Part shown: positions 165 through 14,318 of the stretch, piece after piece | How positions within the stretch are numbered: the stretch's first letter is position 1 | Layout of the letters: each line of letters begins with the position of its first letter | DNA from: Escherichia coli | Lineage (GTDB): Bacteria; Pseudomonadota; Gammaproteobacteria; Enterobacterales; Enterobacteriaceae | Assembly (NCBI RefSeq): GCF_013122565.1 | Contig: NZ_CP053258.1 | Length of the DNA stretch: 64,000 nucleotides | Direction: 5' to 3' (one strand) | The notes under the pieces: generated by a model | The model's input: the letters and a program-made list of their open reading frames with translations, nothing else | The model's database searches: none | What the model was told of the DNA's origin: nothing | Position numbers and translations under genes: made by a program

Positions 165-950
165 GTGGTTCTTATGTCCGAAACAAAAAACGAACTTGAA
201 GACCTGCTGGAAAAAGCAGCAACCGAACCGGCTCACCGCCCGGCCTTTTTCCGTACTCTACTGGAATCCACCGTCTGGGTGCCGGGTACGGCGGCGCAGG
301 GCGAGGCAGTAGTTGAAGATAGCGCGCTTGATTTACAGCACTGGGAAAAAGAAGATGGCACCAGCGTCATTCCTTTTTTTACCTCGTTAGAAGCACTTCA
401 ACAGGCGGTTGAAGACGAACAGGCATTTGTCGTAATGCCCGTTCGCACATTGTTTGAGATGACCCTTGGTGAAACGCTCTTCCTTAATGCCAAACTGCCA
501 ACCGGTAAAGAGTTTATGCCGCGTGAAATCAGTTTGTTGATTGGTGAAGAAGGGAGTCCGCTGAGTAGTCAGGAAGTACTGGAAGGCGGTGAATCGCTGA
601 TATTATCGGAAGTCGCAGAGCCGCCAGCACAAATGATTGATTCACTCACCACCTTATTTAAAACCATTAAGCCAGTGAAGCGTGCTTTTATTTGTTCAAT
701 TAAAGAGAACGAAGAGGCACAGCCTAATTTACTTATTGGCATTGAAGCCGATGGTGATATCGAAGAAATTATTCAGGCGGCGGGAAGTGTAGCGACCGAT
801 ACATTACCTGGCGATGAACCAATCGATATTTGTCAGGTGAAAAAAGGGGAAAAAGGAATTAGCCACTTTATTACCGAACATATTGCGCCATTCTATGAAC
901 GTCGCTGGGGTGGTTTTTTGCGTGACTTTAAACAGAATCGGATAATCTAA
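165..950 (+). CDS. sseB: SseB (enhanced serine sensitivity protein)
   Basis: ORF track 261 aa; track start is GTG at 165, an in-frame ATG at 174 (MSETKNE..., 258 aa) is the more likely start; position next to sseA as in E. coli. Confidence 0.9.
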   Translation: MVLMSETKNELEDLLEKAATEPAHRPAFFRTLLESTVWVPGTAAQGEAVVEDSALDLQHWEKEDGTSVIPFFTSLEALQQAVEDEQAFVVMPVRTLFEMTLGETLFLNAKLPTGKEFMPREISLLIGEEGSPLSSQEVLEGGESLILSEVAEPPAQMIDSLTTLFKTIKPVKRAFICSIKENEEAQPNLLIGIEADGDIEEIIQAAGSVATDTLPGDEPIDICQVKKGEKGISHFITEHIAPFYERRWGGFLRDFKQNRII

Positions 951-990
951 AATATGCCGCCCTAAAGGGCGGCATTCTGGCTTACCTGCT
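951..990. terminator. Hairpin directly after sseB stop; T-run is on the - strand side, so likely terminator of ryfA copy 1 and weak terminator for sseB
   Basis: aaaatatgccgccctaaagggcggcat: GC stem with flanking A-run on + and T-run on -; repeated at about 1627-1660 and 2309-2340. Confidence 0.5.
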
Positions 991-1252
991 GTTCTGAAGG
1001 TTGTTAACCACCAGTAAATTGTCGCCGGAGAGACTCCGGTTATTATTTACCTCGGTTAACAGCGCACCAGAAACAATAAGTACGATACAGAAGCACCGTA
1101 TCTTCATTGTGCGGTCCATGCGAAGACCGCATCACGACAGCACCACTGGCGATATTGCCGCGATAGCAAGCGCTGAGACGCGCTTGCTCTAAAGGTCGCG
1201 GAACATCCTTTCCTTAAGCCAGCGCCCGCTTGCGAGACGGCGGAAAGGGCCG
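955..1252 (-). ncRNA. ryfA: ryfA-like transcript copy 1 (mRNA-like RNA carrying a small ORF)
   Basis: Conserved TATTAT -10 candidate on - strand at about 1259-1264; hairpin terminator at about 951-990; ~300 nt, matching the recalled ~304-nt ryfA between sseA and sseB in K-12. Confidence 0.5.
982..1119 (-). CDS. Small hydrophobic protein, 45 aa (MDRTMKIRCFCIVLIVSGALLTEVNNNRSLSGDNLLVVNNLQNSR); candidate TimP-like type I toxin
   Basis: Hand translation of - strand; hydrophobic N-terminal segment; ORF conserved in all three units with synonymous changes; too short for the ORF track. Confidence 0.45.
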   Translation of the reverse strand: MDRTMKIRCFCIVLIVSGALLTEVNNNRSLSGDNLLVVNNLQNSR

Positions 1253-1295
1253 CAGTGGATAATACACTAACAGAACAATAATAACTCTCTTTTGC

Positions 1296-1324
1296 TTGAC
1301 AAAAAGAGAGTTACTGGCGAGTAT
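1296..1324 (+). promoter_or_regulatory. Candidate sigma70 promoter for + strand small RNA, copy 1 (TTGACA-17-GAGTAT)
   Basis: Perfect -35 TTGACA, 17-nt spacer, GAGTAT; same architecture in all three units although the spacer sequence differs in unit 3. Confidence 0.4.
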
Positions 1325-1330
1325 TGTCTC

Positions 1331-1428
1331 CGCTGAGACGCGCTTGCATTACTACGGTAATACAACCTGCTGGAAAGGCCGCGAACCAAACCGGCAACAA
1401 ATAGCCGCCTGATTTTGGCGGTTTTTTG
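1331..1428 (+). ncRNA. Candidate ~100-nt antisense-type sRNA, copy 1 (TimR/RyfB-like antitoxin RNA)
   Basis: Predicted start just after the promoter; 5' 17 nt cgctgagacgcgcttgc identical to 1171-1187 in the ryfA leader; ends at hairpin plus T-run at about 1405-1428. Confidence 0.4.
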
Positions 1429-1430
1429 TT
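1405..1430 (+). terminator. Intrinsic terminator of candidate sRNA copy 1
   Basis: ccgcctgattttggcgg hairpin followed by TTTTTTG. Confidence 0.55.
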
Positions 1431-1550
1431 GTTTAAAGAAAGTGAAATTACACGTTTAAGTAATATCTTTTATTGGTTAGTATTTTTAATATTAAGCGAA
1501 AATTGTTTATATTTGTCTGAATTCGGACTAATAAGTCAGGTTATTTTAAT

Positions 1551-1628
1551 ATCGAACATATTGCGCCATTCTATGAATGTCGCTGGGGTGGGCTTTTGCG
1601 TGACTTTAAACAGAATCGGATAATCTAA
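1551..1628 (+). pseudogene. Duplicated 3'-terminal fragment of sseB (last ~23 codons plus stop)
   Basis: Near-identical to 873-950, encodes ...HIAPFYECRWGGLLRDFKQNRII*; no start or upstream coding sequence. Confidence 0.6.
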
Positions 1629-1629
1629 A

Positions 1630-1930
1630 ATATGCCGCCCCAAAGGGCGGCATTCGGGCTTACTTGCTGCTCTGACGGTTGTTAACCACCAGTAAATTGT
1701 CGCCGGAGAGACTCCGGTTATTATTTACCTCGGTTAACAGCGCACCAGAAACAATAAGTACGATACAGAAGCACCGTATCTTCATTGTGCGGTCCATGCG
1801 AAGACCGCATCACGACAGCACCACTGGCGATATTGCCGCGATAGCAAGCGCTGTGAAACACCTGCATTTACGGCCACGGAACATCCTTTCCTAAAGCCAG
1901 CGCCCGTTTGCGAGACGGCGGAAAGGGCCG
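1630..1930 (-). ncRNA. ryfA: ryfA-like transcript copy 2
   Basis: Same architecture as copy 1; TATTAT on - strand at about 1937-1942, hairpin terminator at about 1627-1660. Confidence 0.45.
1660..1797 (-). CDS. Small hydrophobic protein, 45 aa, copy 2 (C-terminus ...VVNNRQSSK)
   Basis: Same frame and start as copy 1; differences confined to the last residues. Confidence 0.45.
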   Translation of the reverse strand: MDRTMKIRCFCIVLIVSGALLTEVNNNRSLSGDNLLVVNNRQSSK

Positions 1931-1973
1931 GTGTCGATAATACGCTAAATAAACAATAATTACTCTCTTTTGC

Positions 1974-2002
1974 TTGACAAAAAGAGAGTTGCTGGCGAAT
2001 AT
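1974..2002 (+). promoter_or_regulatory. Candidate promoter for + strand sRNA, copy 2 (TTGACA-17-GAATAT)
   Basis: Same spacing as copy 1. Confidence 0.4.
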
Positions 2003-2008
2003 TGCTCT

Positions 2009-2110
2009 GCTGTGAAGCACCTGCGTTGCTCATGCAACACAAGTCAATCTGCTGGAGAGGCCGCGAACCAAACCGGCAACAAATAACCGCCTGATCTTGG
2101 CGGTTTTTTG
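2009..2110 (+). ncRNA. Candidate antisense-type sRNA, copy 2
   Basis: 5' region gctgtgaagcacctgcgtt matches 1849-1868 with two A-to-G differences that would give G-U pairs; hairpin plus T-run terminator at about 2085-2110. Confidence 0.4.
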
Positions 2111-2230
2111 TTGCTTAAAGAAAGTGAATTTACATGTTTAAGTAATATCTTTTACCGGTTAGTATTTTTAATATTGAGCGGGATTTGTTTATATTTGTCT
2201 GAATTCGGACTAATAAGCCAGGTCATTTTA

Positions 2231-2310
2231 ATATCGAACATATTGCGCCATTCTATGAACGTCGCTGGGGTGGTTTTTTGCGTGACTTTAAACAGAATCG
2301 GATAATCTAA
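2231..2310 (+). pseudogene. Second duplicated 3'-terminal fragment of sseB
   Basis: Identical in sequence class to 873-950 and 1551-1628. Confidence 0.6.
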
Positions 2311-2311
2311 A

Positions 2312-2612
2312 ATATGCCGCCCCAAAGGGCGGCATTCGGGCTTACCTGCTGTTCTGAAGGTTGTTAACCACCAATAAATTGTTGCCGGAGAGACTCCGGT
2401 TATTATTTACCTCAGTTAACAGCGCACCAGAAACAATAAGTACGATACAGAAGCACCGTATCTTCATTGTGCGGTCCATGCGAAGACCGCATCACGACAG
2501 CACCACTGGCGATATTGCCGCGATAGCAAGCACTGTGGGGTGCCTGTATTTACGGTCATGGAACATCCTTTCCTAAAGCCAGTGCCCGTTTGCGAGACGG
2601 CGAAAAGGGCCG
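2312..2612 (-). ncRNA. ryfA: ryfA-like transcript copy 3
   Basis: TATTAT on - strand at about 2619-2624; hairpin terminator at about 2309-2340. Confidence 0.45.
2342..2479 (-). CDS. Small hydrophobic protein, 45 aa, copy 3 (D33N plus two synonymous changes relative to copy 1)
   Basis: ACC to ACT and CTG to TTG silent substitutions preserve the reading frame. Confidence 0.45.
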   Translation of the reverse strand: MDRTMKIRCFCIVLIVSGALLTEVNNNRSLSGNNLLVVNNLQNSR

Positions 2613-2658
2613 TTAAGAATAATACTCTCATGTTTGAATAATTACTCTGTTTATTATC

Positions 2659-2687
2659 TTGACATGGCCAGGCATAAAAGAGAGTAT
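2659..2687 (+). promoter_or_regulatory. Candidate promoter for + strand sRNA, copy 3 (TTGACA-17-GAGTAT)
   Basis: Hexamers and 17-nt spacing kept although spacer and upstream palindrome have diverged. Confidence 0.4.
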
Positions 2688-2692
2688 TTCAA

Positions 2693-2795
2693 CACTGTGG
2701 GGTGCCTGCGTTGCTCCGGCAACACAAGCCAACCTGCTGGAAAGGCCGCGAACCAGACCAGCAATAAAAAACCGCCAAATTCGGCGGTTTTTTAT
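2693..2795 (+). ncRNA. Candidate antisense-type sRNA, copy 3
   Basis: 5' cactgtggggtgcctg identical to 2531-2546 in the ryfA-3 leader; ends at terminator 2768-2797. Confidence 0.4.
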
Positions 2796-2800
2796 TGCCT
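2766..2800. terminator. Bidirectional intrinsic terminator between sRNA copy 3 (+) and sseA (-)
   Basis: caataaaaaaccgccaaattcggcggttttttattg: GC stem flanked by A-run and T-run. Confidence 0.6.
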
Positions 2801-2809
2801 GTAAAAAGC

Positions 2810-3655
2810 TTATTTCACTGGCTCAACCGGTAAATCTGCCCGCGCGCCCCATTCACTCCATGCGCCGTCGTACAGTTTCACGTTTGGCACATCCAGCGTC
2901 GCGAGTGCCAACAAAACCACGGCTGCTGTTACACCAGAGCCGCAGCTGACGATAATCGGTTTGTCATAGCTGACGCCGCGACCAAAAAATATCGCATCCA
3001 GTTCATCGGTCGTTTTTAGTTCGCCTTCGCGCACCAGTTCCGTCCACGGAACGTTCAATGCACCGGGAATATGTCCGCGACGTAAACCTGGGCGAGGTTC
3101 ATCAACTTCTGCGTTAAAACGTGCAGCCGGGCGGGCATCAACAATTTGCGCCGTATTTTCATGGCTTGCCAATAATACATCGGTTACTTTCACCACGGCT
3201 TCAGGATTAAACGCGGCGTTAAACTCTCCTTCCGGCAGCTCTACTGCACCTTCTTCTAACAACAGATCATCGCGCTGCCAGCCTGCAAGTCCACCCCCCA
3301 GAATCGACACTTTCTCTACACCAAAGGTGCGCAGCATCCACCATGCTCGTGGGGCTGAGAAAAGATTACCTTCGTCATAGACAATCAGGTGCTTATCCTG
3401 GTTAACGCCTAATTCACGCATTGCCACGGCGAACGTTTCCGGGCGCGGCAGCATGTGCGGAAGCGGGGAAGTGTGATCAGAAAGCGCTTCGATATCAAAA
3501 AACACTGCGCCGGGAATATGTCCATTCAGATACTCCTGAGCAACGTTACGATCTTCCTGTCCAGGCGACGCCATGCGGGCATCGATAATCTGAATTTCCG
3601 GGTCATCAATATGTTCGGCGAGCCAGTCGGCTCCTACAAACCATGTCGTGGACAT
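2810..3655 (-). CDS. sseA: 3-mercaptopyruvate sulfurtransferase (rhodanese family)
   Basis: 281 aa from ATG at 3655 (MSTTWFVGADWLAEH...); track ORF extends further upstream; active-site CGSGVTA. Confidence 0.93.
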   Translation of the reverse strand: MSTTWFVGADWLAEHIDDPEIQIIDARMASPGQEDRNVAQEYLNGHIPGAVFFDIEALSDHTSPLPHMLPRPETFAVAMRELGVNQDKHLIVYDEGNLFSAPRAWWMLRTFGVEKVSILGGGLAGWQRDDLLLEEGAVELPEGEFNAAFNPEAVVKVTDVLLASHENTAQIVDARPAARFNAEVDEPRPGLRRGHIPGALNVPWTELVREGELKTTDELDAIFFGRGVSYDKPIIVSCGSGVTAAVVLLALATLDVPNVKLYDGAWSEWGARADLPVEPVK

Positions 3656-3861
3656 AGGCATCTCCATTTTTGCCGGGGTTAGGCTAAATTGTCGGATGTT
3701 TAGTGAAAAGCGACAAGCAAAAGAGGCTGATTTGGCTGTCTGAGCCACAATTCTCACTAAAATTCGGATTGTATGGGCGTGATACTGAATTACATAACGT
3801 AAATTCTCACGCATAATAATTATTCGACGTTGCTAACGGGCCATTGTGGCAGGGATGAAAA

Positions 3862-6800
3862 ATGAAAAAGTTACGCTTAGCCGCCTGCATGCTAATGCTG
3901 GCGCTGGCAGGGTGCGACAACAACGATAACGCGCCAACAGCGGTGAAAAAAGATGCGCCTTCTGAAGTTACTAAAGCGGCCTCTTCAGAAAACGCGAGTT
4001 CAGCAAAACTCTCCGCGCCAGAGCGACAAAAACTGGCACAACAGAGTGCCGGTAAGGCGCTGACATTGCTGGATCTCGCTGAAGTCCAACTTGATGGTGC
4101 AGCCACGCTGGTGCTGACGTTCTCCATCCCTCTCGACCCGGATCAGGATTTCTCACGCGTTATTCATGTCGTCGATAAAAAAAGCGGCAAAGTGGATGGT
4201 GCCTGGGAGCTGTCAGATAATCTTAAAGAGCTGCGTTTACGCCACCTCGAACCGAAACGTGATTTGATCGTTACTATTGGCAAGGAGGTCAAAGCACTCA
4301 ACAACGCAACCTTCAGTAAAGATTACGAAAAAACTATAACTACCCGCGACATCCAACCCAGCGTCGGTTTTGCCAGCCGTGGTTCGCTGCTGCCTGGTAA
4401 AGTCGTTGAAGGGCTGCCGGTAATGGCGCTCAACGTTAATAATGTCGATGTTAACTTCTTCCGCGTTAAGCCAGAATCTCTGCCAGCATTCATTAGCCAA
4501 TGGGAATACCGCAATTCGCTGGCGAACTGGCAGTCAGACAAACTGCTGCAGATGGCGGATCTGGTCTACACCGGACGGTTTGATCTCAATCCTGCGCGTA
4601 ACACCCGTGAAAAATTATTGCTGCCGCTGGGCGATATCAAACCGCTTCAGCAGGCGGGCGTGTATCTGGCTGTGATGAATCAGGCTGGACGTTACGATTA
4701 CAGTAATCCCGCGACGCTGTTTACGTTAAGTGATATCGGCGTTTCAGCTCACCGTTATCACAATCGTCTGGATATCTTTACCCAAAGTCTGGAAAACGGC
4801 GCGGCCCAGCAAGGAATTGAAGTCTCTTTATTAAATGAGAAAGGGCAGACTCTGACTCAGGCAACAAGTGACGCTCAGGGGCATGTGCAGCTGGAAAATG
4901 ATAAAAATGCGGCATTACTGCTGGCACGTAAAGACGGTCAGACAACGCTACTCGATTTAAAACTTCCGGCGCTGGACTTAGCAGAATTTAACATTGCTGG
5001 CGCGCCAGGCTATAGCAAACAGTTTTTCATGTTTGGCCCGCGCGATCTTTATCGCCCAGGTGAAACGGTCATCCTCAATGGTTTGCTGCGTGATGCAGAC
5101 GGTAAAGCGTTGCCCGATCAACCCATCAAGTTAGACGTGATTAAACCCGACGGGCAGGTACTCAGGAGCGTCGTTAGTCAGCCGGAGAATGGCCTCTACC
5201 ACTTAACCTGGCCACTCGATAGCAATGCGGCAACCGGTATGTGGCATATTCGCGCTAACACGGGCGATAACCAGTATCGGATGTGGGATTTCCACGTCGA
5301 AGATTTTATGCCAGAGCGCATGGCGCTGAATCTGACCGGTGAGAAAACCCCGCTTATGCCGAAAGATGAAGTGAAATTCTCCGTGGTGGGGTACTACCTG
5401 TACGGTGCACCTGCTAATGGTAATACTTTGCAAGGGCAACTTTTCCTGCGCCCACTGCGTGACGCTGTGTCAGCCTTACCTGGTTTTGAATTCGGCGATA
5501 TAGCTGCCGAAAACCTTTCCCGCACGCTGGATGAAGTTCAGTTGACGCTGGATGATAAAGGGCGCGGCGAAGTTTCTACAGAAAGCCAGTGGAAGGAAAC
5601 GCATTCCCCATTACAGGTTATTTTCCAGGGTAGTTTGCTGGAATCGGGCGGTCGCCCGGTGACGCGCCGCGCTGAGCAGGCTATCTGGCCTGCCGATGCA
5701 TTGCCGGGGATCCGTCCGCAGTTCGCCTCGAAATCGGTTTACGATTATCGCACTGACAGCACGGTGAAACAGCTCATTGTTGATGAAGGCAGTAACGCCG
5801 CTTTTGACATCGTTTATAGCGATGCGCAAGGCGTGAAAAAAGCTGTGTCGGGCTTGCAAGTGCGCCTGATTCGCGAACGCCGTGATTACTACTGGAACTG
5901 GTCAGAAGATGAAGGCTGGCAGTCACAGTTTGATCAAAAAGATCTGATCGAAAATGAACAAACTCTGGATCTTCAGGCGGATGAAACCGGTAAGGTCAGT
6001 TTCCCGGTAGAGTGGGGCGCTTATCGTCTGGAAGTCAAAGCGCCGAATGAAGCGGTCAGTAGCGTGCGTTTCTGGGCTGGCTATAGCTGGCAGGACAACA
6101 GCGACGGGAGCGGTACCGTGCGACCCGACCGTGTCACGCTGAAACTGGATAAAGCCAGTTATCGCCCTGGCGATACCATCAAGTTGCATATTGCCGCGCC
6201 AACGGCGGGTAAAGGTTATGCGATGGTCGAGTCCAGTGAAGGGCCGCTGTGGTGGCAAGAGATTGATGTTCCGGCTCAAGGGCTAGATCTGACGATTCCG
6301 GTCGATAAAACCTGGCATCGTCATGATCTGTATTTAAGTACACTGGTGGTACGTCCTGGCGATAAATCTCGCTCCGCGACGCCAAAACGCGCGGTTGGGG
6401 TGTTGCATCTTCCGCTTGGTGATGAAAACCGTCGCCTCGATCTGGCGCTGGAAACACCAGCAAAAATGCGTCCCAATCAGCCATTAACCGTGAAAATTAA
6501 AGCCAGCAATAAAAATGGTGAGATGCCAAAACAGGTGAATGTGCTGGTGTCTGCCGTTGATAGCGGTGTGCTGAATATTACTGACTACGTTACCCCCGAT
6601 CCGTGGCAGGCGTTCTTTGGTCAGAAACGCTATGGTGCAGACATTTACGATATTTACGGTCAGGTCATTGAAGGTCAGGGGCGTCTGGCAGCTCTGCGTT
6701 TTGGTGGCGATGGTGATGAGCTGAAACGTGGTGGTAAACCGCCGGTCAATCACGTCAATATTGTCGCGCAGCAGGCGCTGCCGGTAACGCTCAATGAACA

Positions 6801-8823
6801 GGGCGAAGGCTCGGTTACACTGCCAATTGGCGATTTTAACGGTGAATTACGCGTCATGGCGCAAGCCTGGACGGCAGATGACTTCGGTAGCAACGAAAGC
6901 AAAGTGATAGTTGCCGCACCGGTGATTGCTGAACTGAACATGCCGCGCTTTATGGCGAGTGGCGATACCTCGCGTCTGACGCTGGATATCACTAATCTTA
7001 CCGATAAACCGCAAAAACTGAACGTTGCCCTGACCGCCAGTGGTTTGCTTGAACTGGTCAGCGATTCACCCGCAGCCGTTGAATTAGCGCCAGGTGTGCG
7101 TACTACGCTGTTTATCCCGGTGCGAGCATTGCCGGGTTATGGCGATGGAGAAATTCAGGCCACCATTAGCGGGTTAGCGTTACCGGGTGAAACCGTTGCC
7201 GATCAGCATAAGCAGTGGAAAATCGGCGTCCGTCCGGCGTTCCCGGCACAAACGGTTAATGACGGTACGGCGTTGCAGCCTGGTGAGTCATGGGCGATTC
7301 CGGCGGATGGATTGCAAAACTTCTCGCCTGTTACGCTGGAAGGGCAATTGTTGTTGAGCGGCAAACCACCGCTGAACATCGCACGTTATATCAAAGAGTT
7401 AAAAGCGTATCCGTACGGCTGTCTCGAGCAAACCGCCAGCGGCCTGTTCCCGTCACTTTATACCAACGCAGCCCAACTGCAGGCGTTGGGCATCAAAGGC
7501 GACAGTGATGAGAAACGCCGTGCATCGGTCGATATCGGCATTTCCCGTTTGCTGCAAATGCAACGTGATAACGGCGGCTTTGCGCTGTGGGATAAAAACG
7601 GTGACGAAGAGTACTGGCTGACGGCTTACGTGATGGATTTCCTGGTCCGCGCAGGCGAACAGGGTTACAGCGTGCCGACAGACGCCATTAACCGGGGTAA
7701 TGAGCGTCTGCTGCGCTATTTACAAGATCCGGGCATGATGTCGATCCCGTACGCGGATAATCTCAAAGCCAGTAAATTCGCCGTACAGTCTTACGCTGCG
7801 CTGGTGTTGGCCCGTCAGCAAAAGGCTCCACTGGGTGCGCTGCGTGAAATCTGGGAGCATCGTGCAGATGCCGCTTCTGGTTTACCGCTGCTGCAACTTG
7901 GCGTTGCGCTGAAAACCATGGGTGATGCAACGCGTGGTGAAGAAGCGATTGTGCTGGCGCTGAAAACGCAGAGAAATAGTGATGAGCGGATATGGCTGGG
8001 TGATTACGGTAGTCCACTGCGCGACAACGCGTTAATGCTCTCCTTGCTGGAAGAAAATAAACTGCTACCCGATGAGCAGTACACTTTGCTGAACACACTT
8101 TCGCAGCAGGCGTTTGGTGAACGCTGGCTATCGACGCAGGAAAGTAACGCGTTGTTCCTGGCTGCCCGTACGATTCAGGATTTACCGGGTAAATGGCAGG
8201 CGCAAACCTCTTTCTCATCTGAGCCGCTGATAGGCGAGAAAGCGCAAAACAGCACTCTGAATAGCGATCAACTTGCCACCTTGCAGGTGACCAACAGTGG
8301 CGATCAGCCGTTATGGCTGCGTGTGGATGCCAGCGGTTATCCGCAATCCGCACCTTTACCGGCGAACAATGTGCTGCAAATCGAGCGTCATATTCTTGGT
8401 ACTGATGGTAAGAGCAAATCGCTGGACTCGTTACGTAGCGGCGATCTGGTGCTGGTCTGGTTGCAGGTAAAAGCCAGTAACAGCGTGCCAGATGCGTTAG
8501 TCGTGGATTTGCTGCCTGCGGGTCTGGAACTGGAAAACCAGAATCTGGCGAACGGTAGCGCCAGCCTGGAGCAAAGTGGTGGCGAAGTGCAAAACTTACT
8601 GAACCAGATGCAGCAGGCGAGTATTAAGCACATTGAGTTCCGTGACGATCGCTTTGTGGCGGCGGTTGCCGTTGATGAATACCAACCGGTAACGCTGGTG
8701 TATCTGGCGCGGGCGGTGACGCCGGGAACGTATCAGGTACCGCAACCGATGGTGGAATCAATGTATGTTCCCCAATGGCGGGCGACTGGCGCGGCTGAAG
8801 ATCTGCTGATTGTCAGACCGTAA
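3862..8823 (+). CDS. yfhM: Alpha-2-macroglobulin-family lipoprotein
   Basis: 1653 aa; lipoprotein signal LALAGC; thioester motif CLEQ (YGCLEQTAS); adjacent to pbpC. Confidence 0.95.
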   Translation: MKKLRLAACMLMLALAGCDNNDNAPTAVKKDAPSEVTKAASSENASSAKLSAPERQKLAQQSAGKALTLLDLAEVQLDGAATLVLTFSIPLDPDQDFSRVIHVVDKKSGKVDGAWELSDNLKELRLRHLEPKRDLIVTIGKEVKALNNATFSKDYEKTITTRDIQPSVGFASRGSLLPGKVVEGLPVMALNVNNVDVNFFRVKPESLPAFISQWEYRNSLANWQSDKLLQMADLVYTGRFDLNPARNTREKLLLPLGDIKPLQQAGVYLAVMNQAGRYDYSNPATLFTLSDIGVSAHRYHNRLDIFTQSLENGAAQQGIEVSLLNEKGQTLTQATSDAQGHVQLENDKNAALLLARKDGQTTLLDLKLPALDLAEFNIAGAPGYSKQFFMFGPRDLYRPGETVILNGLLRDADGKALPDQPIKLDVIKPDGQVLRSVVSQPENGLYHLTWPLDSNAATGMWHIRANTGDNQYRMWDFHVEDFMPERMALNLTGEKTPLMPKDEVKFSVVGYYLYGAPANGNTLQGQLFLRPLRDAVSALPGFEFGDIAAENLSRTLDEVQLTLDDKGRGEVSTESQWKETHSPLQVIFQGSLLESGGRPVTRRAEQAIWPADALPGIRPQFASKSVYDYRTDSTVKQLIVDEGSNAAFDIVYSDAQGVKKAVSGLQVRLIRERRDYYWNWSEDEGWQSQFDQKDLIENEQTLDLQADETGKVSFPVEWGAYRLEVKAPNEAVSSVRFWAGYSWQDNSDGSGTVRPDRVTLKLDKASYRPGDTIKLHIAAPTAGKGYAMVESSEGPLWWQEIDVPAQGLDLTIPVDKTWHRHDLYLSTLVVRPGDKSRSATPKRAVGVLHLPLGDENRRLDLALETPAKMRPNQPLTVKIKASNKNGEMPKQVNVLVSAVDSGVLNITDYVTPDPWQAFFGQKRYGADIYDIYGQVIEGQGRLAALRFGGDGDELKRGGKPPVNHVNIVAQQALPVTLNEQGEGSVTLPIGDFNGELRVMAQAWTADDFGSNESKVIVAAPVIAELNMPRFMASGDTSRLTLDITNLTDKPQKLNVALTASGLLELVSDSPAAVELAPGVRTTLFIPVRALPGYGDGEIQATISGLALPGETVADQHKQWKIGVRPAFPAQTVNDGTALQPGESWAIPADGLQNFSPVTLEGQLLLSGKPPLNIARYIKELKAYPYGCLEQTASGLFPSLYTNAAQLQALGIKGDSDEKRRASVDIGISRLLQMQRDNGGFALWDKNGDEEYWLTAYVMDFLVRAGEQGYSVPTDAINRGNERLLRYLQDPGMMSIPYADNLKASKFAVQSYAALVLARQQKAPLGALREIWEHRADAASGLPLLQLGVALKTMGDATRGEEAIVLALKTQRNSDERIWLGDYGSPLRDNALMLSLLEENKLLPDEQYTLLNTLSQQAFGERWLSTQESNALFLAARTIQDLPGKWQAQTSFSSEPLIGEKAQNSTLNSDQLATLQVTNSGDQPLWLRVDASGYPQSAPLPANNVLQIERHILGTDGKSKSLDSLRSGDLVLVWLQVKASNSVPDALVVDLLPAGLELENQNLANGSASLEQSGGEVQNLLNQMQQASIKHIEFRDDRFVAAVAVDEYQPVTLVYLARAVTPGTYQVPQPMVESMYVPQWRATGAAEDLLIVRP

Positions 8824-11136
8824 ATGCCTCGCCTGTTAACCAAACGCGGCTGCTGGATAACGCTGGCAGCTGCGCCCTTTCTCCTTTTTCTTGCAGCGTG
8901 GGGAGCAGATAAACTCTGGCCTCTACCGCTGCATGAAGTCAATCCCGCACGAGTGGTCGTGGCGCAGGATGGTACGCCGCTCTGGCGCTTCGCCGATGCT
9001 GACGGCATCTGGCGTTATCCGGTAACAATCGAAGATGTTTCTCCACGTTACCTTGAAGCGCTGATCAATTATGAAGATCGCTGGTTCTGGAAGCATCCGG
9101 GGGTGAATCCATTCTCGGTGGCGCGCGCAGCATGGCAAGATCTCACTTCGGGACGGGTTATTTCCGGTGGCAGCACGCTCACTATGCAGGTTGCTCGTCT
9201 GCTTGATCCTCACCCCAAAACATTTGGCGGCAAAATTCGCCAGCTCTGGCGCGCGTTGCAACTGGAGTGGCATTTGTCTAAGCGTGAAATTCTGACCTTG
9301 TATCTTAACCGCGCTCCGTTTGGCGGTACGTTGCAGGGGATCGGTGCGGCAAGTTGGGCTTATCTCGGAAAATCGTCTGCGAATTTAAGCTATTCCGAGG
9401 CGGCAATGCTGGCGGTGTTGCCGCAAGCGCCCAGCCGACTGCGCCCGGATCGCTGGCCGGAACGTGCCGAAGCCGCGCGTAATAAAGTGCTCGAACGGAT
9501 GGCTGCGCAAGGTGTGTGGTCCCGTGAGCAGGTAAAAGAGTCAAGGGAAGAACCCATCTGGCTGGCACCCCGACAAATGCCGCAACTGGCACCGCTGTTT
9601 TCGCGCATGATGCTCGGTAAAAGCAAAAGCGACAAAATTGTTACTACGCTGGATGCCGGTCTTCAACGACGTCTGGAAGAACTGGCGCAAAACTGGAAAG
9701 GACGATTACCACCGAGCAGCTCACTGGCGATGATCGTGGTTGATCATACCGATATGCGTGTTCGCGGCTGGGTGGGATCGGTTGATCTCAACGATGATTC
9801 ACGCTTTGGTCATGTCGATATGGTCAATGCGATCCGATCGCCAGGATCGGTGCTCAAACCGTTTGTTTATGGTCTGGCGCTGGATGAAGGCTTGATCCAC
9901 CCGGCATCACTGCTGCAAGACGTCCCCCGGCGCACCGGTGATTATCGACCAGGTAATTTTGATGGCGGTTTTCATGGCCCGATCAGCATGAGCGAGGCGC
10001 TGGTGCGCTCGCTGAATTTACCTGCTGTGCAGGTGCTGGAAGCCTATGGCCCGAAACGGTTTGCGGCAAAGTTACGCAATGTTGGATTGCCGTTATATTT
10101 GCCCAACGGTGCTGCGCCGAATCTTTCACTCATACTCGGCGGCGCTGGTGCAAAACTGGAAGATATGGCGGCAGCGTATACCGCGTTTGCTCGCCACGGC
10201 AAGGCAGGCAAATTGCGCTTACAGCCTGACGATCCGCTGCTTGAACGGCCTTTAATGTCGTCGGGGGCGGCGTGGATCATTCGCCGGATTATGGCTGATG
10301 AAGCGCAACCCTTGCCGGATAGTGCCTTGCCGCGCGTCGCCCCACTGGCATGGAAAACGGGCACCAGCTATGGCTATCGTGATGCCTGGGCGATTGGGGT
10401 TAACGCTCGCTATGTCATTGGGATCTGGACTGGCAGACCGGATGGCACGCCCGTTGTTGGTCAGTTTGGCTTTGCCAGCGCCGTACCGCTGTTGAATCAG
10501 GTTAATAATATCTTATTGTCGCGCAGTGCTAATCTGCCGGAAGACCCGCGCCCGAACTCAGTCACTCGTGGCGTTATCTGCTGGCCGGGCGGACAGTCTT
10601 TGCCGGAAGGTGACGGTAACTGTCGCCGCCGCCTGGCAACCTGGTTGCTGGACGGGAGCCAGCCGCCAACTCTATTACTGCCGGAGCAGGAAGGCATTAA
10701 TGGCATTCGTTTTCCCATCTGGCTGGATGAAAACGGCAAACGTGTTGCCGCTGATTGCCCTCAGGCGCGACAAGAAATGATAAATGTCTGGCCGCTACCG
10801 CTGGAACCCTGGTTGCCCGCATCAGAACGCCGCGCTGTGCGCTTACCACCGGCCTCGACAATTTGCCCGCCATACGGTCACGATGCACAACTCCCGCTGC
10901 AGCTGACAGGCGTTCGCGATGGCGCGATTATTAAACGTTTACCGGGCGCAGCAGAAGCGACTTTGCCGGTGCAATCAAGTGGAGGAGCAGGTGAACGCTG
11001 GTGGTTTCTGAATGGCGAACCGTTAACTGAACGCGGGCGCAACGTGACCCTGCATTTGATGGATAAAGGCGATTATCAATTGCTGGTGATGGATGAGGTG
11101 GGGCAAATCGCGACAGTGAAATTTGTCATGCAATAG
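8824..11136 (+). CDS. pbpC: Penicillin-binding protein 1C
   Basis: 770 aa; ATG immediately follows yfhM stop (TAAATG). Confidence 0.95.
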   Translation: MPRLLTKRGCWITLAAAPFLLFLAAWGADKLWPLPLHEVNPARVVVAQDGTPLWRFADADGIWRYPVTIEDVSPRYLEALINYEDRWFWKHPGVNPFSVARAAWQDLTSGRVISGGSTLTMQVARLLDPHPKTFGGKIRQLWRALQLEWHLSKREILTLYLNRAPFGGTLQGIGAASWAYLGKSSANLSYSEAAMLAVLPQAPSRLRPDRWPERAEAARNKVLERMAAQGVWSREQVKESREEPIWLAPRQMPQLAPLFSRMMLGKSKSDKIVTTLDAGLQRRLEELAQNWKGRLPPSSSLAMIVVDHTDMRVRGWVGSVDLNDDSRFGHVDMVNAIRSPGSVLKPFVYGLALDEGLIHPASLLQDVPRRTGDYRPGNFDGGFHGPISMSEALVRSLNLPAVQVLEAYGPKRFAAKLRNVGLPLYLPNGAAPNLSLILGGAGAKLEDMAAAYTAFARHGKAGKLRLQPDDPLLERPLMSSGAAWIIRRIMADEAQPLPDSALPRVAPLAWKTGTSYGYRDAWAIGVNARYVIGIWTGRPDGTPVVGQFGFASAVPLLNQVNNILLSRSANLPEDPRPNSVTRGVICWPGGQSLPEGDGNCRRRLATWLLDGSQPPTLLLPEQEGINGIRFPIWLDENGKRVAADCPQARQEMINVWPLPLEPWLPASERRAVRLPPASTICPPYGHDAQLPLQLTGVRDGAIIKRLPGAAEATLPVQSSGGAGERWWFLNGEPLTERGRNVTLHLMDKGDYQLLVMDEVGQIATVKFVMQ

Positions 11137-11284
11137 TCTGTTTTGTCCCTGATTGTTGCTTAAACTGGGTTTATTTTAAAAAAATGTTACCTTCAGCAAT
11201 AGTCAACGGCCCTGTTGCTCATTATAATCCGCGCCATCTCGTACGCTGGTACAGACAACAACAGAACAATTTACAGAGGTAAAC

Positions 11285-11716
11285 ATGGCTATTGAACGTA
11301 CTTTTTCCATCATCAAACCGAACGCGGTAGCAAAAAACGTCATTGGTAATATCTTTGCGCGCTTTGAAGCTGCAGGGTTCAAAATTGTCGGCACCAAAAT
11401 GCTGCACCTGACCGTTGAACAGGCTCGTGGCTTTTATGCTGAACACGATGGAAAACCGTTCTTTGATGGTCTGGTTGAATTCATGACCTCTGGCCCGATC
11501 GTGGTTTCCGTGCTGGAAGGTGAAAACGCCGTTCAGCGTCACCGCGATCTGCTGGGCGCGACCAATCCGGCAAACGCACTGGCCGGTACTCTGCGCGCTG
11601 ATTACGCTGACAGCCTGACCGAAAATGGTACCCACGGTTCTGATTCCGTCGAATCTGCCGCTCGCGAAATCGCTTATTTTTTCGGCGAAGGCGAAGTGTG
11701 CCCGCGCACCCGTTAA
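11285..11716 (+). CDS. ndk: Nucleoside diphosphate kinase
   Basis: 143 aa, [15 protein letters not shown]...; matches recalled E. coli Ndk. Confidence 0.97.
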
Positions 11717-11775
11717 TAATTTCGTAAATGCCGCGTGCAAACGTGGCATCCGTGCGCCAGAATTTGTACAATGAA

Positions 11776-11819
11776 GCGCCCCCGGACGAGCAGCCGCTCA
11801 CCGGGGCGTTTCTTTTTTC
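11776..11819 (+). terminator. Intrinsic terminator downstream of ndk
   Basis: gcgcccccgg...ccggggcg hairpin followed by TTTCTTTTTT. Confidence 0.6.
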
Positions 11820-11865
11820 AACCCTCCAGGGGCCATAACGTGTAATAACGAGGCCGGAATAGCAT

Positions 11866-13020
11866 ATGTCTGAACAATTAGTCACACCTGAAAACGTCAC
11901 CACGAAAGATGGAAAAATCAACCTGCTGGATCTCAACCGTCAGCAGATGCGGGAGTTTTTTAAAGATTTAGGTGAAAAACCCTTCCGCGCCGATCAGGTG
12001 ATGAAGTGGATGTATCACTATTGCTGCGACAACTTTGATGAGATGACCGACATCAACAAAGTGTTGCGCGGCAAACTGAAAGAGGTGGCGGAGATCCGCG
12101 CACCGGAAGTGGTTGAAGAACAGCGTTCATCTGACGGCACCATTAAATGGGCGATCGCCGTTGGCGATCAGCGCGTCGAAACGGTGTATATCCCGGAAGA
12201 CGACCGTGCCACGCTCTGCGTCTCTTCGCAGGTGGGGTGTGCGCTGGAGTGTAAATTCTGTTCCACCGCCCAGCAGGGCTTTAACCGCAACCTGCGGGTA
12301 TCGGAAATTATCGGTCAGGTGTGGCGTGCGGCGAAAATCGTCGGCGCAGCAAAAGTCACCGGTCAGCGCCCAATCACTAACGTAGTGATGATGGGCATGG
12401 GCGAGCCGCTGCTCAACCTGAACAACGTCGTTCCGGCGATGGAAATCATGCTTGATGATTTCGGTTTTGGCCTGTCTAAACGTCGCGTCACGCTTTCTAC
12501 TTCCGGTGTAGTTCCGGCGCTGGATAAACTGGGCGATATGATCGACGTTGCACTGGCAATTTCCCTGCACGCGCCGAACGACGAAATTCGTGACGAAATT
12601 GTGCCGATCAACAAAAAGTACAATATCGAAACGTTCCTTGCTGCGGTGCGCCGTTATCTGGAGAAATCCAACGCCAATCAGGGCCGAGTCACTATTGAAT
12701 ACGTGATGCTTGACCACGTTAACGACGGCACTGAACACGCGCACCAACTGGCGGAACTGCTGAAAGATACGCCGTGTAAGATCAACCTGATCCCGTGGAA
12801 CCCGTTCCCGGGTGCGCCGTATGGACGCAGCTCGAACAGCCGTATCGACCGTTTCTCAAAAGTGCTGATGAGCTACGGTTTCACCACTATTGTGCGTAAA
12901 ACTCGTGGTGATGATATCGATGCTGCCTGTGGTCAGTTGGCGGGCGATGTTATCGACCGTACAAAACGTACCCTGCGTAAACGGATGCAGGGTGAAGCCA
13001 TCGACATTAAAGCGGTCTGA
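11866..13020 (+). CDS. rlmN: 23S rRNA/tRNA m2A methyltransferase, radical SAM
   Basis: 384 aa; CALECKFC (CxxxCxxC) motif. Confidence 0.95.
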
Positions 13021-13024
13021 TAGC

Positions 13025-13066
13025 CATTACGCCACGGTTACTTTATGTACCGTGGCGTAATGTTTT
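13025..13066 (+). terminator. Hairpin terminator after rlmN
   Basis: 13-bp perfect stem cattacgccacggt/accgtggcgtaatg followed by GTTTTAT. Confidence 0.5.
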
Positions 13067-13304
13067 ATGAATGAAGTATTAAGTTGCAATTGTCTGGTCA
13101 ATATTAACGGTGCGTTTTTGCTGACTTTAAGGCAGTATGTAACGATGCAACAGTAAGTTAGCCTTAGTGAATGTGGGCTTTGTCACGAGCACACAGACGG
13201 TCTTATACTGTATGATAACGGTTAACTTAACGGATGTTTCGCGGTGTGGGTGAGCATGATGGTTCACCGGCATCTCAATTCTCATTTAAACGTACCTGCA
13301 GCGA

Positions 13305-14318
13305 ATGAATACTGAAGCCACGCACGACCAAAATGAAGCACTTACTACCGGCGCTCGCCTGCGTAATGCTCGCGAACAACTAGGACTTAGTCAGCAGGCC
13401 GTTGCCGAGCGACTTTGCCTGAAGGTTTCCACGGTACGCGACATTGAAGAAGATAAGGCACCCGCCGATCTTGCTTCAACATTCCTGCGCGGATATATCC
13501 GCTCTTATGCGCGTCTGGTACATATTCCAGAAGAAGAACTGCTGCCAGGGCTGGAAAAGCAGGCTCCACTACGGGCTGCAAAAGTTGCGCCGATGCAGAG
13601 TTTTTCCCTCGGTAAACGCCGCAAAAAACGTGACGGCTGGCTGATGACCTTCACCTGGCTGGTGTTGTTTGTGGTTATCGGCCTGAGCGGTGCCTGGTGG
13701 TGGCAAGACCACAAAGCTCAGCAGGAAGAGATCACCACTATGGCCGATCAATCTTCGGCGGAACTGAGCAGTAATAGCGAGCAGGGGCAGAGTGTTCCGT
13801 TAAATACGTCGACAACTACAGATCCGGCTACAACGTCCACGCCGCCAGCGTCTGTGGATACTACCGCAACCAACACGCAAACACCTGCCGTAACTGCGCC
13901 AGCACCAGCTGTTGATCCGCAACAGAATGCGGTTGTCTCGCCTTCGCAGGCAAATGTTGAGACCGCCGCGACCCCGGCACCAACGGCAACAACAACGCCA
14001 GATGGCGCTGCGCCGTTGCCAACCGATCAGGCTGGCGTGACCACGCCGGCGGCTGATCCGAATGCGCTGGTGATGAACTTTACTGCCGATTGCTGGCTGG
14101 AGGTCACTGATGCTACCGGTAAAAAATTGTTTAGCGGTATGCAGCGTAAAGACGGTAATTTGAACTTAACCGGCCAGGCACCGTACAAACTGAAAATTGG
14201 TGCGCCAGCCGCAGTACAGATCCAGTATCAAGGGAAACCTGTCGATCTGAGTCGTTTTATCAGAACTAACCAGGTTGCGCGTCTGACCCTCAATGCCGAA
14301 CAATCACCGGCGCAGTAA
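13305..14318 (+). CDS. rodZ: Cell-shape protein RodZ (HTH, single TM)
   Basis: 337 aa; N-terminal HTH, hydrophobic segment, Pro/Thr/Ala-rich linker. Confidence 0.93.

Follow-up and report, generated by a model that had tools for sequence, protein, structure and literature searches.

A probable tandem array of three timP-timR toxin-antitoxin modules with distinct RNA addresses between sseB and sseA of Escherichia coli

The spacer between sseB and sseA on the Escherichia coli contig NZ_CP053258.1 (assembly GCF_013122565.1) holds three copies of ryfA side by side, which raises the question of what these copies are in relation to each other and to the single copy found elsewhere. The analyzed stretch of 64,000 nucleotides from this contig is referred to as the window. 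In Salmonella, ryfA encodes TimP, a Sec-dependent toxic inner-membrane peptide, and the 5' end of the divergent RNA TimR pairs with the 5' untranslated region (5'UTR) of its mRNA and represses it (PMC7667032). Because ryfA is the TimP mRNA and is repressed by the divergent TimR, the modules are to be regarded as toxin-antitoxin pairs, more than as small RNA (sRNA) genes; RefSeq likewise names the open reading frame (ORF) inside the ryfA RNA timP. With a probability of roughly 80%, we consider the interval to be a naturally occurring array in which three complete and paralogous type I toxin-antitoxin modules, timP-timR (ryfA-ryfB), follow each other in tandem. It represents a rare three-module, higher-copy state of the known timPR/ryfAB locus and not a new kind of element.

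The sseB–sseA spacer extends over positions 951-2809, between the sseB stop at 950 and the sseA stop codon at 2810, and its 1,859 bp agree with the ~1.86 kb given by a sequence-only reading that preceded our analysis. A repeat finder detected a 300-nt block three times, at 867, 1545, and 2227, with 97-98% identity and a spacing of 678 and 682 bp, and a MAFFT alignment of the three units was collinear along their full length, so that the self-comparison proposed in that reading returned three collinear units. Its description of three tandem ~680-bp units holds for their number and arrangement and for the first two (678 and 682 bp), but not for the terminal one, which comprises only 575 bp because the 120-bp AT-rich tail ending units 1 and 2 is absent. 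As had also been claimed, the 3' end of sseB is copied at the head of every unit, here delimited to 76 bp. These footprints begin with CGAACATATTGCGCC at 875, 1553, and 2235, end with TAA at 950, 1628, and 2310, and share 95-99% identity, with a fainter likeness reaching back to ~864. The footprint coordinates and the alignment support the further claim that the junctions lie inside the sseB coding sequence. Tandem Repeats Finder reported no tandem repeat in the window; it is silent on the array because its longest period is 500.

Every unit contains a ryfA gene, in accordance with the earlier description, and the three matches to the Rfam family RF00126 (gathering threshold 80 bits) cover the full model at E values of ~1e-88, which excludes a chance origin. 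All three TimP ORFs are intact, exceed the curated NF040796 cut-off of 45 bits, and vary in only one to four C-terminal positions, the hydrophobic, signal-like N-terminus MKIRCFCIVLIVSGALL being invariant in 3/3 copies. A search for the exact TimP peptide of unit 2 returned no record. The hairpin stem-loop 4 (SL4; GCGGUCUUCGCAUGGACCGC), holding the Shine-Dalgarno (SD) sequence, is identical in all units. Furthermore, a candidate 7-bp pseudoknot between C[G/A]CUGGC in SL1 and GCCAGUG in the SL3 loop is present in 3/3 units and may, judged from this complementarity, be equivalent to the 7-bp SL1-SL3 pseudoknot of Salmonella, which Eleftheraki and Holmqvist (2024) found to be essential for timP translation (PMC11228461).

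On the plus strand, each unit provides a TTGACA -35 element, a 17-nt spacer, a GA(G/A)TAT -10 element, a predicted transcript of ~100 nt, and an intrinsic terminator. The defining layout of timPR, a divergent sRNA with a (predicted) 5' end complementary to SL2 followed by an intrinsic terminator, was thus found in each unit. All units possess the timP -10 element (TATTAT), SL4, the SL3 loop with its SL1 partner, TimR promoters, and terminators, and none of the three modules appears decayed. Salmonella Typhimurium timPR shares with these modules the RF00126 and NF040796 matches, the divergent, non-overlapping sRNA pairing with SL2, the SD sequence in SL4, and the candidate complementarity for an SL1-SL3 pseudoknot. 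In contrast to the single Salmonella module, the window harbors three in tandem whose SL2/TimR sequences all differ, the toxin of E. coli has 41 instead of 38 aa, and there is no STM2534-like gene between the array and sseA.

Carried over from Salmonella, toxicity, membrane targeting, and repression by TimR would apply to the three E. coli units as follows. Each module would express a ~305-nt timP mRNA from the minus strand, encoding the 41-aa inner-membrane toxin, and a ~100-nt TimR from a divergent promoter located ~45 bp upstream of the timP start site. TimR, through a 5' end complementary to SL2 in the 5'UTR of its own timP, would bind there and destabilize the SL1-SL3 pseudoknot needed for translation, thereby keeping the toxin off. 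With near-identical toxin bodies and three distinct addresses, termed A, B, and C, each TimR would mainly control its own timP.

The addresses become apparent from the distribution of the differences. The units are DIFFERENTIATED, with a very uneven identity along their length: 95-99% in the footprint, 97-98% in terminator, ORF, SL4, and SL3, and 92-96% in SL1, but 55-69% in the SL2 patch, 56-86% in the inter-promoter region, 55-73% in the TimR 5' region (the address), and 83-94% in the TimR body. Within each unit, the plus-strand SL2 sequence is repeated at the TimR 5' end, and SL2 and address co-vary, the shared sequence being CGCTGAGACGCGCTTGC in unit 1, GCTGTGAA(A/G)CACCTGC in unit 2, and CACTGTGGGGTGCCTG in unit 3. 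Transcription of timP and TimR from opposite strands makes these recurrences complementary RNA segments, offering 17 contiguous Watson-Crick pairs in A, 20 including G-U pairs in B, and 16 in C. Using the 28-nt TimR 5' end and the 38-nt SL2 region, cognate duplexes were predicted at -37.6 (A), -37.2 (B), and -38.2 (C) kcal/mol and non-cognate ones at -14.1 to -25.8 kcal/mol; these short segments were chosen since RNAduplex on the full-length RNAs gave uninformative energies with giant loops. By these predictions, each antitoxin should act chiefly on its own toxin mRNA. SL2 folds as a hairpin in all types (-17.6, -15.5, and -13.4 kcal/mol for A, B, and C). In Salmonella, SL2 is the mapped TimR site and dispensable for translation (PMC11228461), and it is therefore free to vary.

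This pattern bears on an explanation implied by the earlier reading, a recent triplication in which one ryfA unit was amplified by unequal recombination into equivalent, drifting copies. Body and footprints with 95-99% identity would fit such a history, as would the rarity of the array. The cassettes of SL2, promoters, and TimR, however, are only 55-86% identical between units, each cassette type is near-identical across unrelated genomes including single-copy ones, and two copies of one TimR type are almost never found within a genome. Moreover, the variable patches co-vary in a way that preserves both the pairing and the SL2 hairpin. We therefore judge redundant triplication to be very improbable; the three units are differentiated cassettes, not fresh duplicates.

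Table 1. Features of the sseB–sseA interval of the window (position 1 is the first nucleotide of the window)
Feature	Position	Strand	Size, elements, and evidence
sseB coding sequence (CDS)	174..950	+	258 aa; ORF list, Prokaryotic Genome Annotation Pipeline (PGAP) annotation of homologous loci, exact protein recorded as E. coli SseB
sseB last 76 bp	875-950	+	Template of the footprints
Unit 1, address type A	875..1552		678 bp: sseB 3' end, timP-A, TimR-A, AT-rich tail
timP-A mRNA (ryfA RNA)	949..1253	-	RF00126 314.0 bits, E 1.3e-87, model 1-296 of 296
timP-A CDS	982..1107	-	41 aa, MKIRCFCIVLIVSGALLTEVNNNRSLSGDNLLVVNNLQNSR; NF040796 (toxic_TimP) 84.2 bits
SL2-A hairpin of timP-A 5'UTR	1166..1187	-	Pentamer CGCGT; predicted TimR binding site
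timP-A -10 element	1260-1265		TATTAT, conserved
TimR-A (RyfB-like)	1331..1427	+	~97 nt, 5' end predicted; layout as TimR/RyfB1 (PMC7667032, PMC5333039); -35 TTGACA 1296-1301; -10 GAGTAT 1319-1324; address 1331-1347; intrinsic terminator 1403-1427
IS128 RNA (Rfam RF00125)	1385-1595	-	203 bits
AT-rich tail of unit 1	1433..1552		120 bp
Unit 2, address type B	1553..2234		682 bp; sseB footprint 1553-1628 at head
timP-B mRNA (ryfA RNA)	1627..1931	-	RF00126 316.0 bits, model 1-296 of 296
timP-B CDS	1660-1785	-	41 aa, ...NNRQSSK; NF040796 84.3 bits
SL2-B hairpin	1844-1865	-	Variable pentamer TGTTT
TimR-B	2009..2109	+	~101 nt, predicted; -35 1974-1979; -10 1997-2002; address 2009-2027; terminator 2085-2109
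IS128 RNA (Rfam RF00125)	2067-2277	-	225 bits
AT-rich tail of unit 2	2115..2234		120 bp; 91% identical to unit 1 tail
Unit 3, address type C	2235..2809		575 bp, without AT-rich tail; footprint 2235-2310 at head
timP-C mRNA (ryfA RNA)	2309..2613	-	RF00126 324.1 bits, model 1-296 of 296
timP-C CDS	2342-2467	-	41 aa; NF040796 84.2 bits
SL2-C hairpin	2526-2547	-	Variable pentamer CACCC
TimR-C	2694..2793	+	~100 nt, predicted; -35 2659-2664; -10 2682-2687; address 2693-2708; terminator ~2768-2793; abuts sseA stop codon
sseA CDS	2810..3655	-	3-mercaptopyruvate sulfurtransferase, 281 aa; right boundary of array

In RNA sense, the pentamers of the A, B, and C addresses (CGCGT, TGTTT, and CACCC) correspond to three of the four variable-region versions that were listed as alleles by Fris et al., who correlated "ryfA1-like" and "ryfA2" alleles with pathogenicity (PMC5333039). 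The same study found two ryfA copies in Shigella dysenteriae, in agreement with the sequence-only reading, and showed that RyfB1, the TimR homologue, lowers RyfA1 but not RyfA2 (Fris 2017, PMC5333039). Both arrays occupy the same locus in tandem arrangement and share a 5-nt variable region within the RyfB-complementary stretch, and in S. dysenteriae the specificity of RyfB1 for RyfA1 is experimental. The window differs by three copies instead of two, joining three of the Fris versions, and by our reading of the copies as toxin-antitoxin pairs, which follows the later TimP work. The literature searched contains no mention of three ryfA/timP copies, nor of ryfB/ryfC as whole words, and nowhere treats the variable-region alleles as paralogous modules.

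The S. dysenteriae data also give rise to a different view, according to which RyfA RNAs are mainly trans-acting "sibling" sRNAs whose variable region chooses mRNA targets (e.g., ompC, fimbrial, or stress genes), TimR/RyfB serve as sponges, and toxin production is secondary or absent. In S. dysenteriae, overproduction of RyfA1 abolishes ompC mRNA and no peptide was detected (PMC5333039), ryfA phenotypes of uropathogenic E. coli (UPEC) persist with the ORF disrupted (PMC8205139), and ryfA and timR mutants of avian pathogenic E. coli (APEC) show virulence phenotypes (PMC13188913). However, the TimP ORF is intact in the three units and conserved across Enterobacteriaceae, and both translation and toxicity of TimP have been demonstrated in Salmonella (PMC7667032). 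A site that is dispensable for translation and yet bound by TimR fits an address role of SL2 (PMC11228461). The sRNA and toxin roles are not mutually exclusive. We regard a mainly trans-acting function as unlikely.

In functional terms, the array is similar to multi-copy chromosomal type I families of E. coli (Ibs/Sib, Ldr/Rdl, and Zor/Orz), in which repeated near-identical toxins each have their own antisense RNA and short variable pairing regions provide the discrimination. Compared with these, TimR is divergent and non-overlapping, so that two separate patches must co-evolve, and the timPR copies are strictly tandem at one locus and polymorphic in number among strains.

The extent of this polymorphism was assessed in 5,426 complete E. 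coli genomes. Of these, 5,425 carry the conserved timP core, with 5,596 copies altogether and hence 171 extra ones; no genome has more than three, and none of the copies lies on a plasmid. The possible copy-number variation raised in the earlier reading is hereby established, and the comparison it had suggested recovered one-, two-, and three-copy states. Two-unit arrays account for ~3% and three-unit arrays for ~0.1% (4–6 genomes) of the set; six genomes contain two AT-rich junctions. Four three-copy genomes could be named (MEW, 19KM1831, PapRG-04-4, and PapM-32-1), and in all four PGAP annotates three timP genes and two partial sseB pseudogene fragments. Fifteen sampled loci revealed the same three types as singles (A, C), pairs (A-B, B-A, A-C, B-C), and triples (A-B-C, B-A-C), with the order A-B-C in the window and MEW and B-A-C in PapRG-04-4. 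No TimR type appeared twice in one genome, apart from a single exception for type B in a sensitive search. Across the genomes, counts of the toxin addresses never exceed those of the matching TimR types: at least 2,909 for SL2-A versus at least 4,549 for TimR-A, at least 1,970 for SL2-B versus ~2,100 for TimR-B, and at least 383 for SL2-C versus at least 579 for TimR-C. For TimR-B, a 68-nt query retrieved 461 genomes by megablast and 2,145 by blastn; megablast missed many since the exact match of the query to the K-12 variant is limited to a 27-nt word.

Whether the array is real in this strain was considered separately. The flanks of the window reach no more than 98.8% identity to any RefSeq complete genome. 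The exact YfhM protein of the window, recorded for E. coli alone, is encoded on two further contigs. One of them, a Logan short-read contig (SRR11451224; locus 1-320), is 100.000% identical to window positions 2502-13823 and apparently derives from the same isolate; it stops at 2502, where unit-3-specific sequence meets the shared body. The other, the draft GCA_052983875.1 (locus 1991-4794), is 99.9% identical from window position 1545 on, with two mismatches after 1676, and has two units, B-C. An assembly artefact, with a lower or higher true copy number, could find support in the ~300-bp identical stretch that exceeds short-read bridging, in the contig break exactly at the repeat edge, and in the two units of the close relative. 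Nevertheless, every unit contains a unique cassette of ~250 bp, which precludes mis-stacking of one sequence, the independent complete genome of MEW shows the same A-B-C order, and at least three further genomes carry three-unit arrays. A real multi-copy repeat would, in addition, break a contig at just this boundary. It is thus most improbable that the array in the window is artefactual.

The B-C relative is informative regarding the formation of the natural array as well. The body of its first unit has one mismatch to unit 1 of the window in comparison to seven to unit 2, a pattern suggestive of crossing over between the unit 1 and unit 2 bodies with removal of cassette A as one block. Unequal homologous recombination within the ~300-bp body (footprint, terminator, ORF, SL4, and SL3) would accordingly be able to build and remodel the array, and each crossover would insert or delete an address cassette (SL2, promoters, TimR) in its entirety. 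As SL2 and TimR lie within ~150 bp of diverged DNA between homogenized flanks, a toxin address and its reader would as a rule be gained or lost jointly through crossovers. Expansion by unequal recombination, as put forward before, is therefore backed by the structure of the relative, but the three conserved cassettes do not fit a simple expansion. In the 289-bp body, any two units differ by 0-15 nt without clustering by address type; units A and B of ETEC1738 have identical bodies, and the bodies of a single-copy A and a single-copy C genome differ by 2 nt. Because the body is mixed across types and the cassettes are discrete, the body appears to be homogenized by recombination or gene conversion.

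Possible traces of such events are found in loci with one toxin gene. K-12 MG1655 shares with the window the flanks, timP type B, TimR-A plus TimR-B, and the AT-rich junction segment, but it has only one toxin gene with address B and two TimR-like genes (locus sequence 1750-2570, comparable to window 949-2809). Between timP-B and its cognate TimR-B, the latter beside sseA, lies a 322-bp segment composed of TimR-A, the AT-rich tail, and 10 bp of the sseB footprint, with the 16-bp direct repeat ACGGCGGAAAGGGCCG on either side. The two TimR-like sRNAs of K-12 may correspond to the annotated ryfB and ryfC. The single ryfA that the earlier reading had attributed to K-12 is thus correct with regard to ryfA/timP itself, but it overlooks the junction scar and the second, non-cognate TimR. 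The junction segment occurs at 80-90% identity in 1,968 genomes, and ~37% of complete E. coli appear to share the K-12 scar. Many "single-copy" genomes, K-12 included, appear to be scars of multi-unit arrays. In CB209 (locus 1141-1300), an orphan TimR-like gene with its own promoter and a fourth address, GAGTAGACGAGATACACTTGCAGTAATACA, follows timP-A, TimR-A, and an AT-rich junction; no timP matching the fourth address was found within this locus.

Taken as a generalization, E. coli timPR could be a polymorphic cassette array with a small set of orthogonal addresses (A, B, C, and at least a fourth, orphan type), each present at most once per genome, in which the conversion-homogenized body serves as recombination substrate and cassettes are gained, lost, and reordered as units. 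We consider this broader proposal to be evenly balanced between being right and wrong. If true, the "ryfA1-like" and "ryfA2" alleles of Fris et al. would be paralogous modules differentially retained by lineages, array scars would make up ~40% of the E. coli genomes, K-12 among them, and their surplus antitoxins could neutralize incoming timP variants.

Several observations weigh against three intact, mutually specific toxin-antitoxin pairs and need to be taken into account. Cognate adjacency is not absolute, as SL2-B of K-12 adjoins the non-cognate TimR-A. In 19KM1831, unit 1 has SL2-C beside TimR-A (locus 772-970) with the cognate TimR-C two units away; the toxin addresses of this array are C/B/C and its TimR types A/B/C, leaving TimR-A orphan, which is suggestive of gene conversion confined to the SL2 patch. 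KR2009, with a K-12-type locus, apparently lacks the cognate TimR-B: a ~172-bp deletion at 1130-1160 removes promoter and address of TimR-B and leaves timP-B with the non-cognate TimR-A, either as a tolerated loss of antitoxin or as an assembly error. Without a cognate TimR in KR2009, pairing would not be strictly needed for viability; timR deletion mutants of Salmonella grow normally (PMC7667032). The TimR 5' ends are predictions from promoter geometry, and the orthogonality of the three addresses is a property of predicted energies. Among the latter, TimR-C and SL2-B can form 18 contiguous pairs including five G-U pairs at -25.8 kcal/mol, making cross-talk possible. Furthermore, the counts from short megablast queries are lower bounds, collapse of a short-read assembly would yield the same B-C picture in GCA_052983875.1, and the ORF-independent ryfA phenotypes of UPEC mentioned above belong here as well.

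System, mechanism, tandem duplication, and specificity of RyfB1 were already published, and the three-copy genomes are annotated by PGAP; the main additions are the recognition of the units as differentiated cassettes and of many "single-copy" genomes as apparent array scars. Three near-identical toxins side by side with three RNA addresses constitute a natural experiment, providing material on the specificity of non-overlapping antisense RNA and on the co-evolution of toxin and antitoxin patches. The correlation of ryfA alleles with pathogenicity can be recast as the question of which paralogous module a lineage kept. As a caution, deletion studies of ryfA or timR in E. coli must allow for extra or orphan TimR genes.

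The AT-rich tail at the unit junctions coincides with a second Rfam family. The matches to RF00125 ("IS128"; threshold 80 bits) extend from the TimR 3' end with its terminator across the AT-rich tail into the beginning of the sseB footprint, and at the terminal unit the score drops to 28 bits, below threshold. This family seems to describe the duplication junction and not a demonstrated RNA gene. The tail occurs exclusively at unit junctions, is present in 41% of complete E. coli genomes, and was found within these genomes at the sseB–sseA locus alone; neither upstream sseB nor any other part of the window resembles it detectably, and the loci of other species that were searched lack it. Its derivation from decayed upstream sseB, which would make the unit a duplication from inside sseB to the TimR terminator, was rejected as the local alignment score was no better than those of shuffles. 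On the plus strand, both tails also include a sigma-70-like motif (TTAATA, 16-nt spacer, TATATT; 1486-1513 and 2168-2195). It aims into the sseB footprint, towards the shared bidirectional terminator, and could, as far as the motif indicates, drive a short transcript.

Outside E. coli, a palindromic-hairpin pattern scan of genome contigs, most matches of which were spurious and GC-rich, left at least 13 usable enterobacterial loci, each with a single ryfA at the hit. In representative genomes these include Escherichia whittamii, Escherichia sp. E1V33, Citrobacter, Superficieibacter, Yersinia, Rahnella, and Erwinia. No IS128 match was found in these other-species loci, several of which are short. 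The sseB-ryfA junction differs in E. whittamii (locus 3183-3911) because of ~170 bp that are not in the window, located between the sseB 3' end (3183-3258) and ryfA (from 3429); this locus sequence ends 215 bp beyond ryfA. In E. coli B derivatives (BL21) and some clinical isolates, the IS3-family element ISEcB1 is inserted in the sseB-sseA spacer beside timP. Upstream of sseB, the window contains a palindromic element at 11-139 resembling repetitive extragenic palindromic sequences and bacterial interspersed mosaic elements (REP/BIME), with an inverted repeat at 60-88/94-122 and sub-threshold Rfam matches to naRNA4 and ES036, which is ordinary for intergenic DNA of E. coli.

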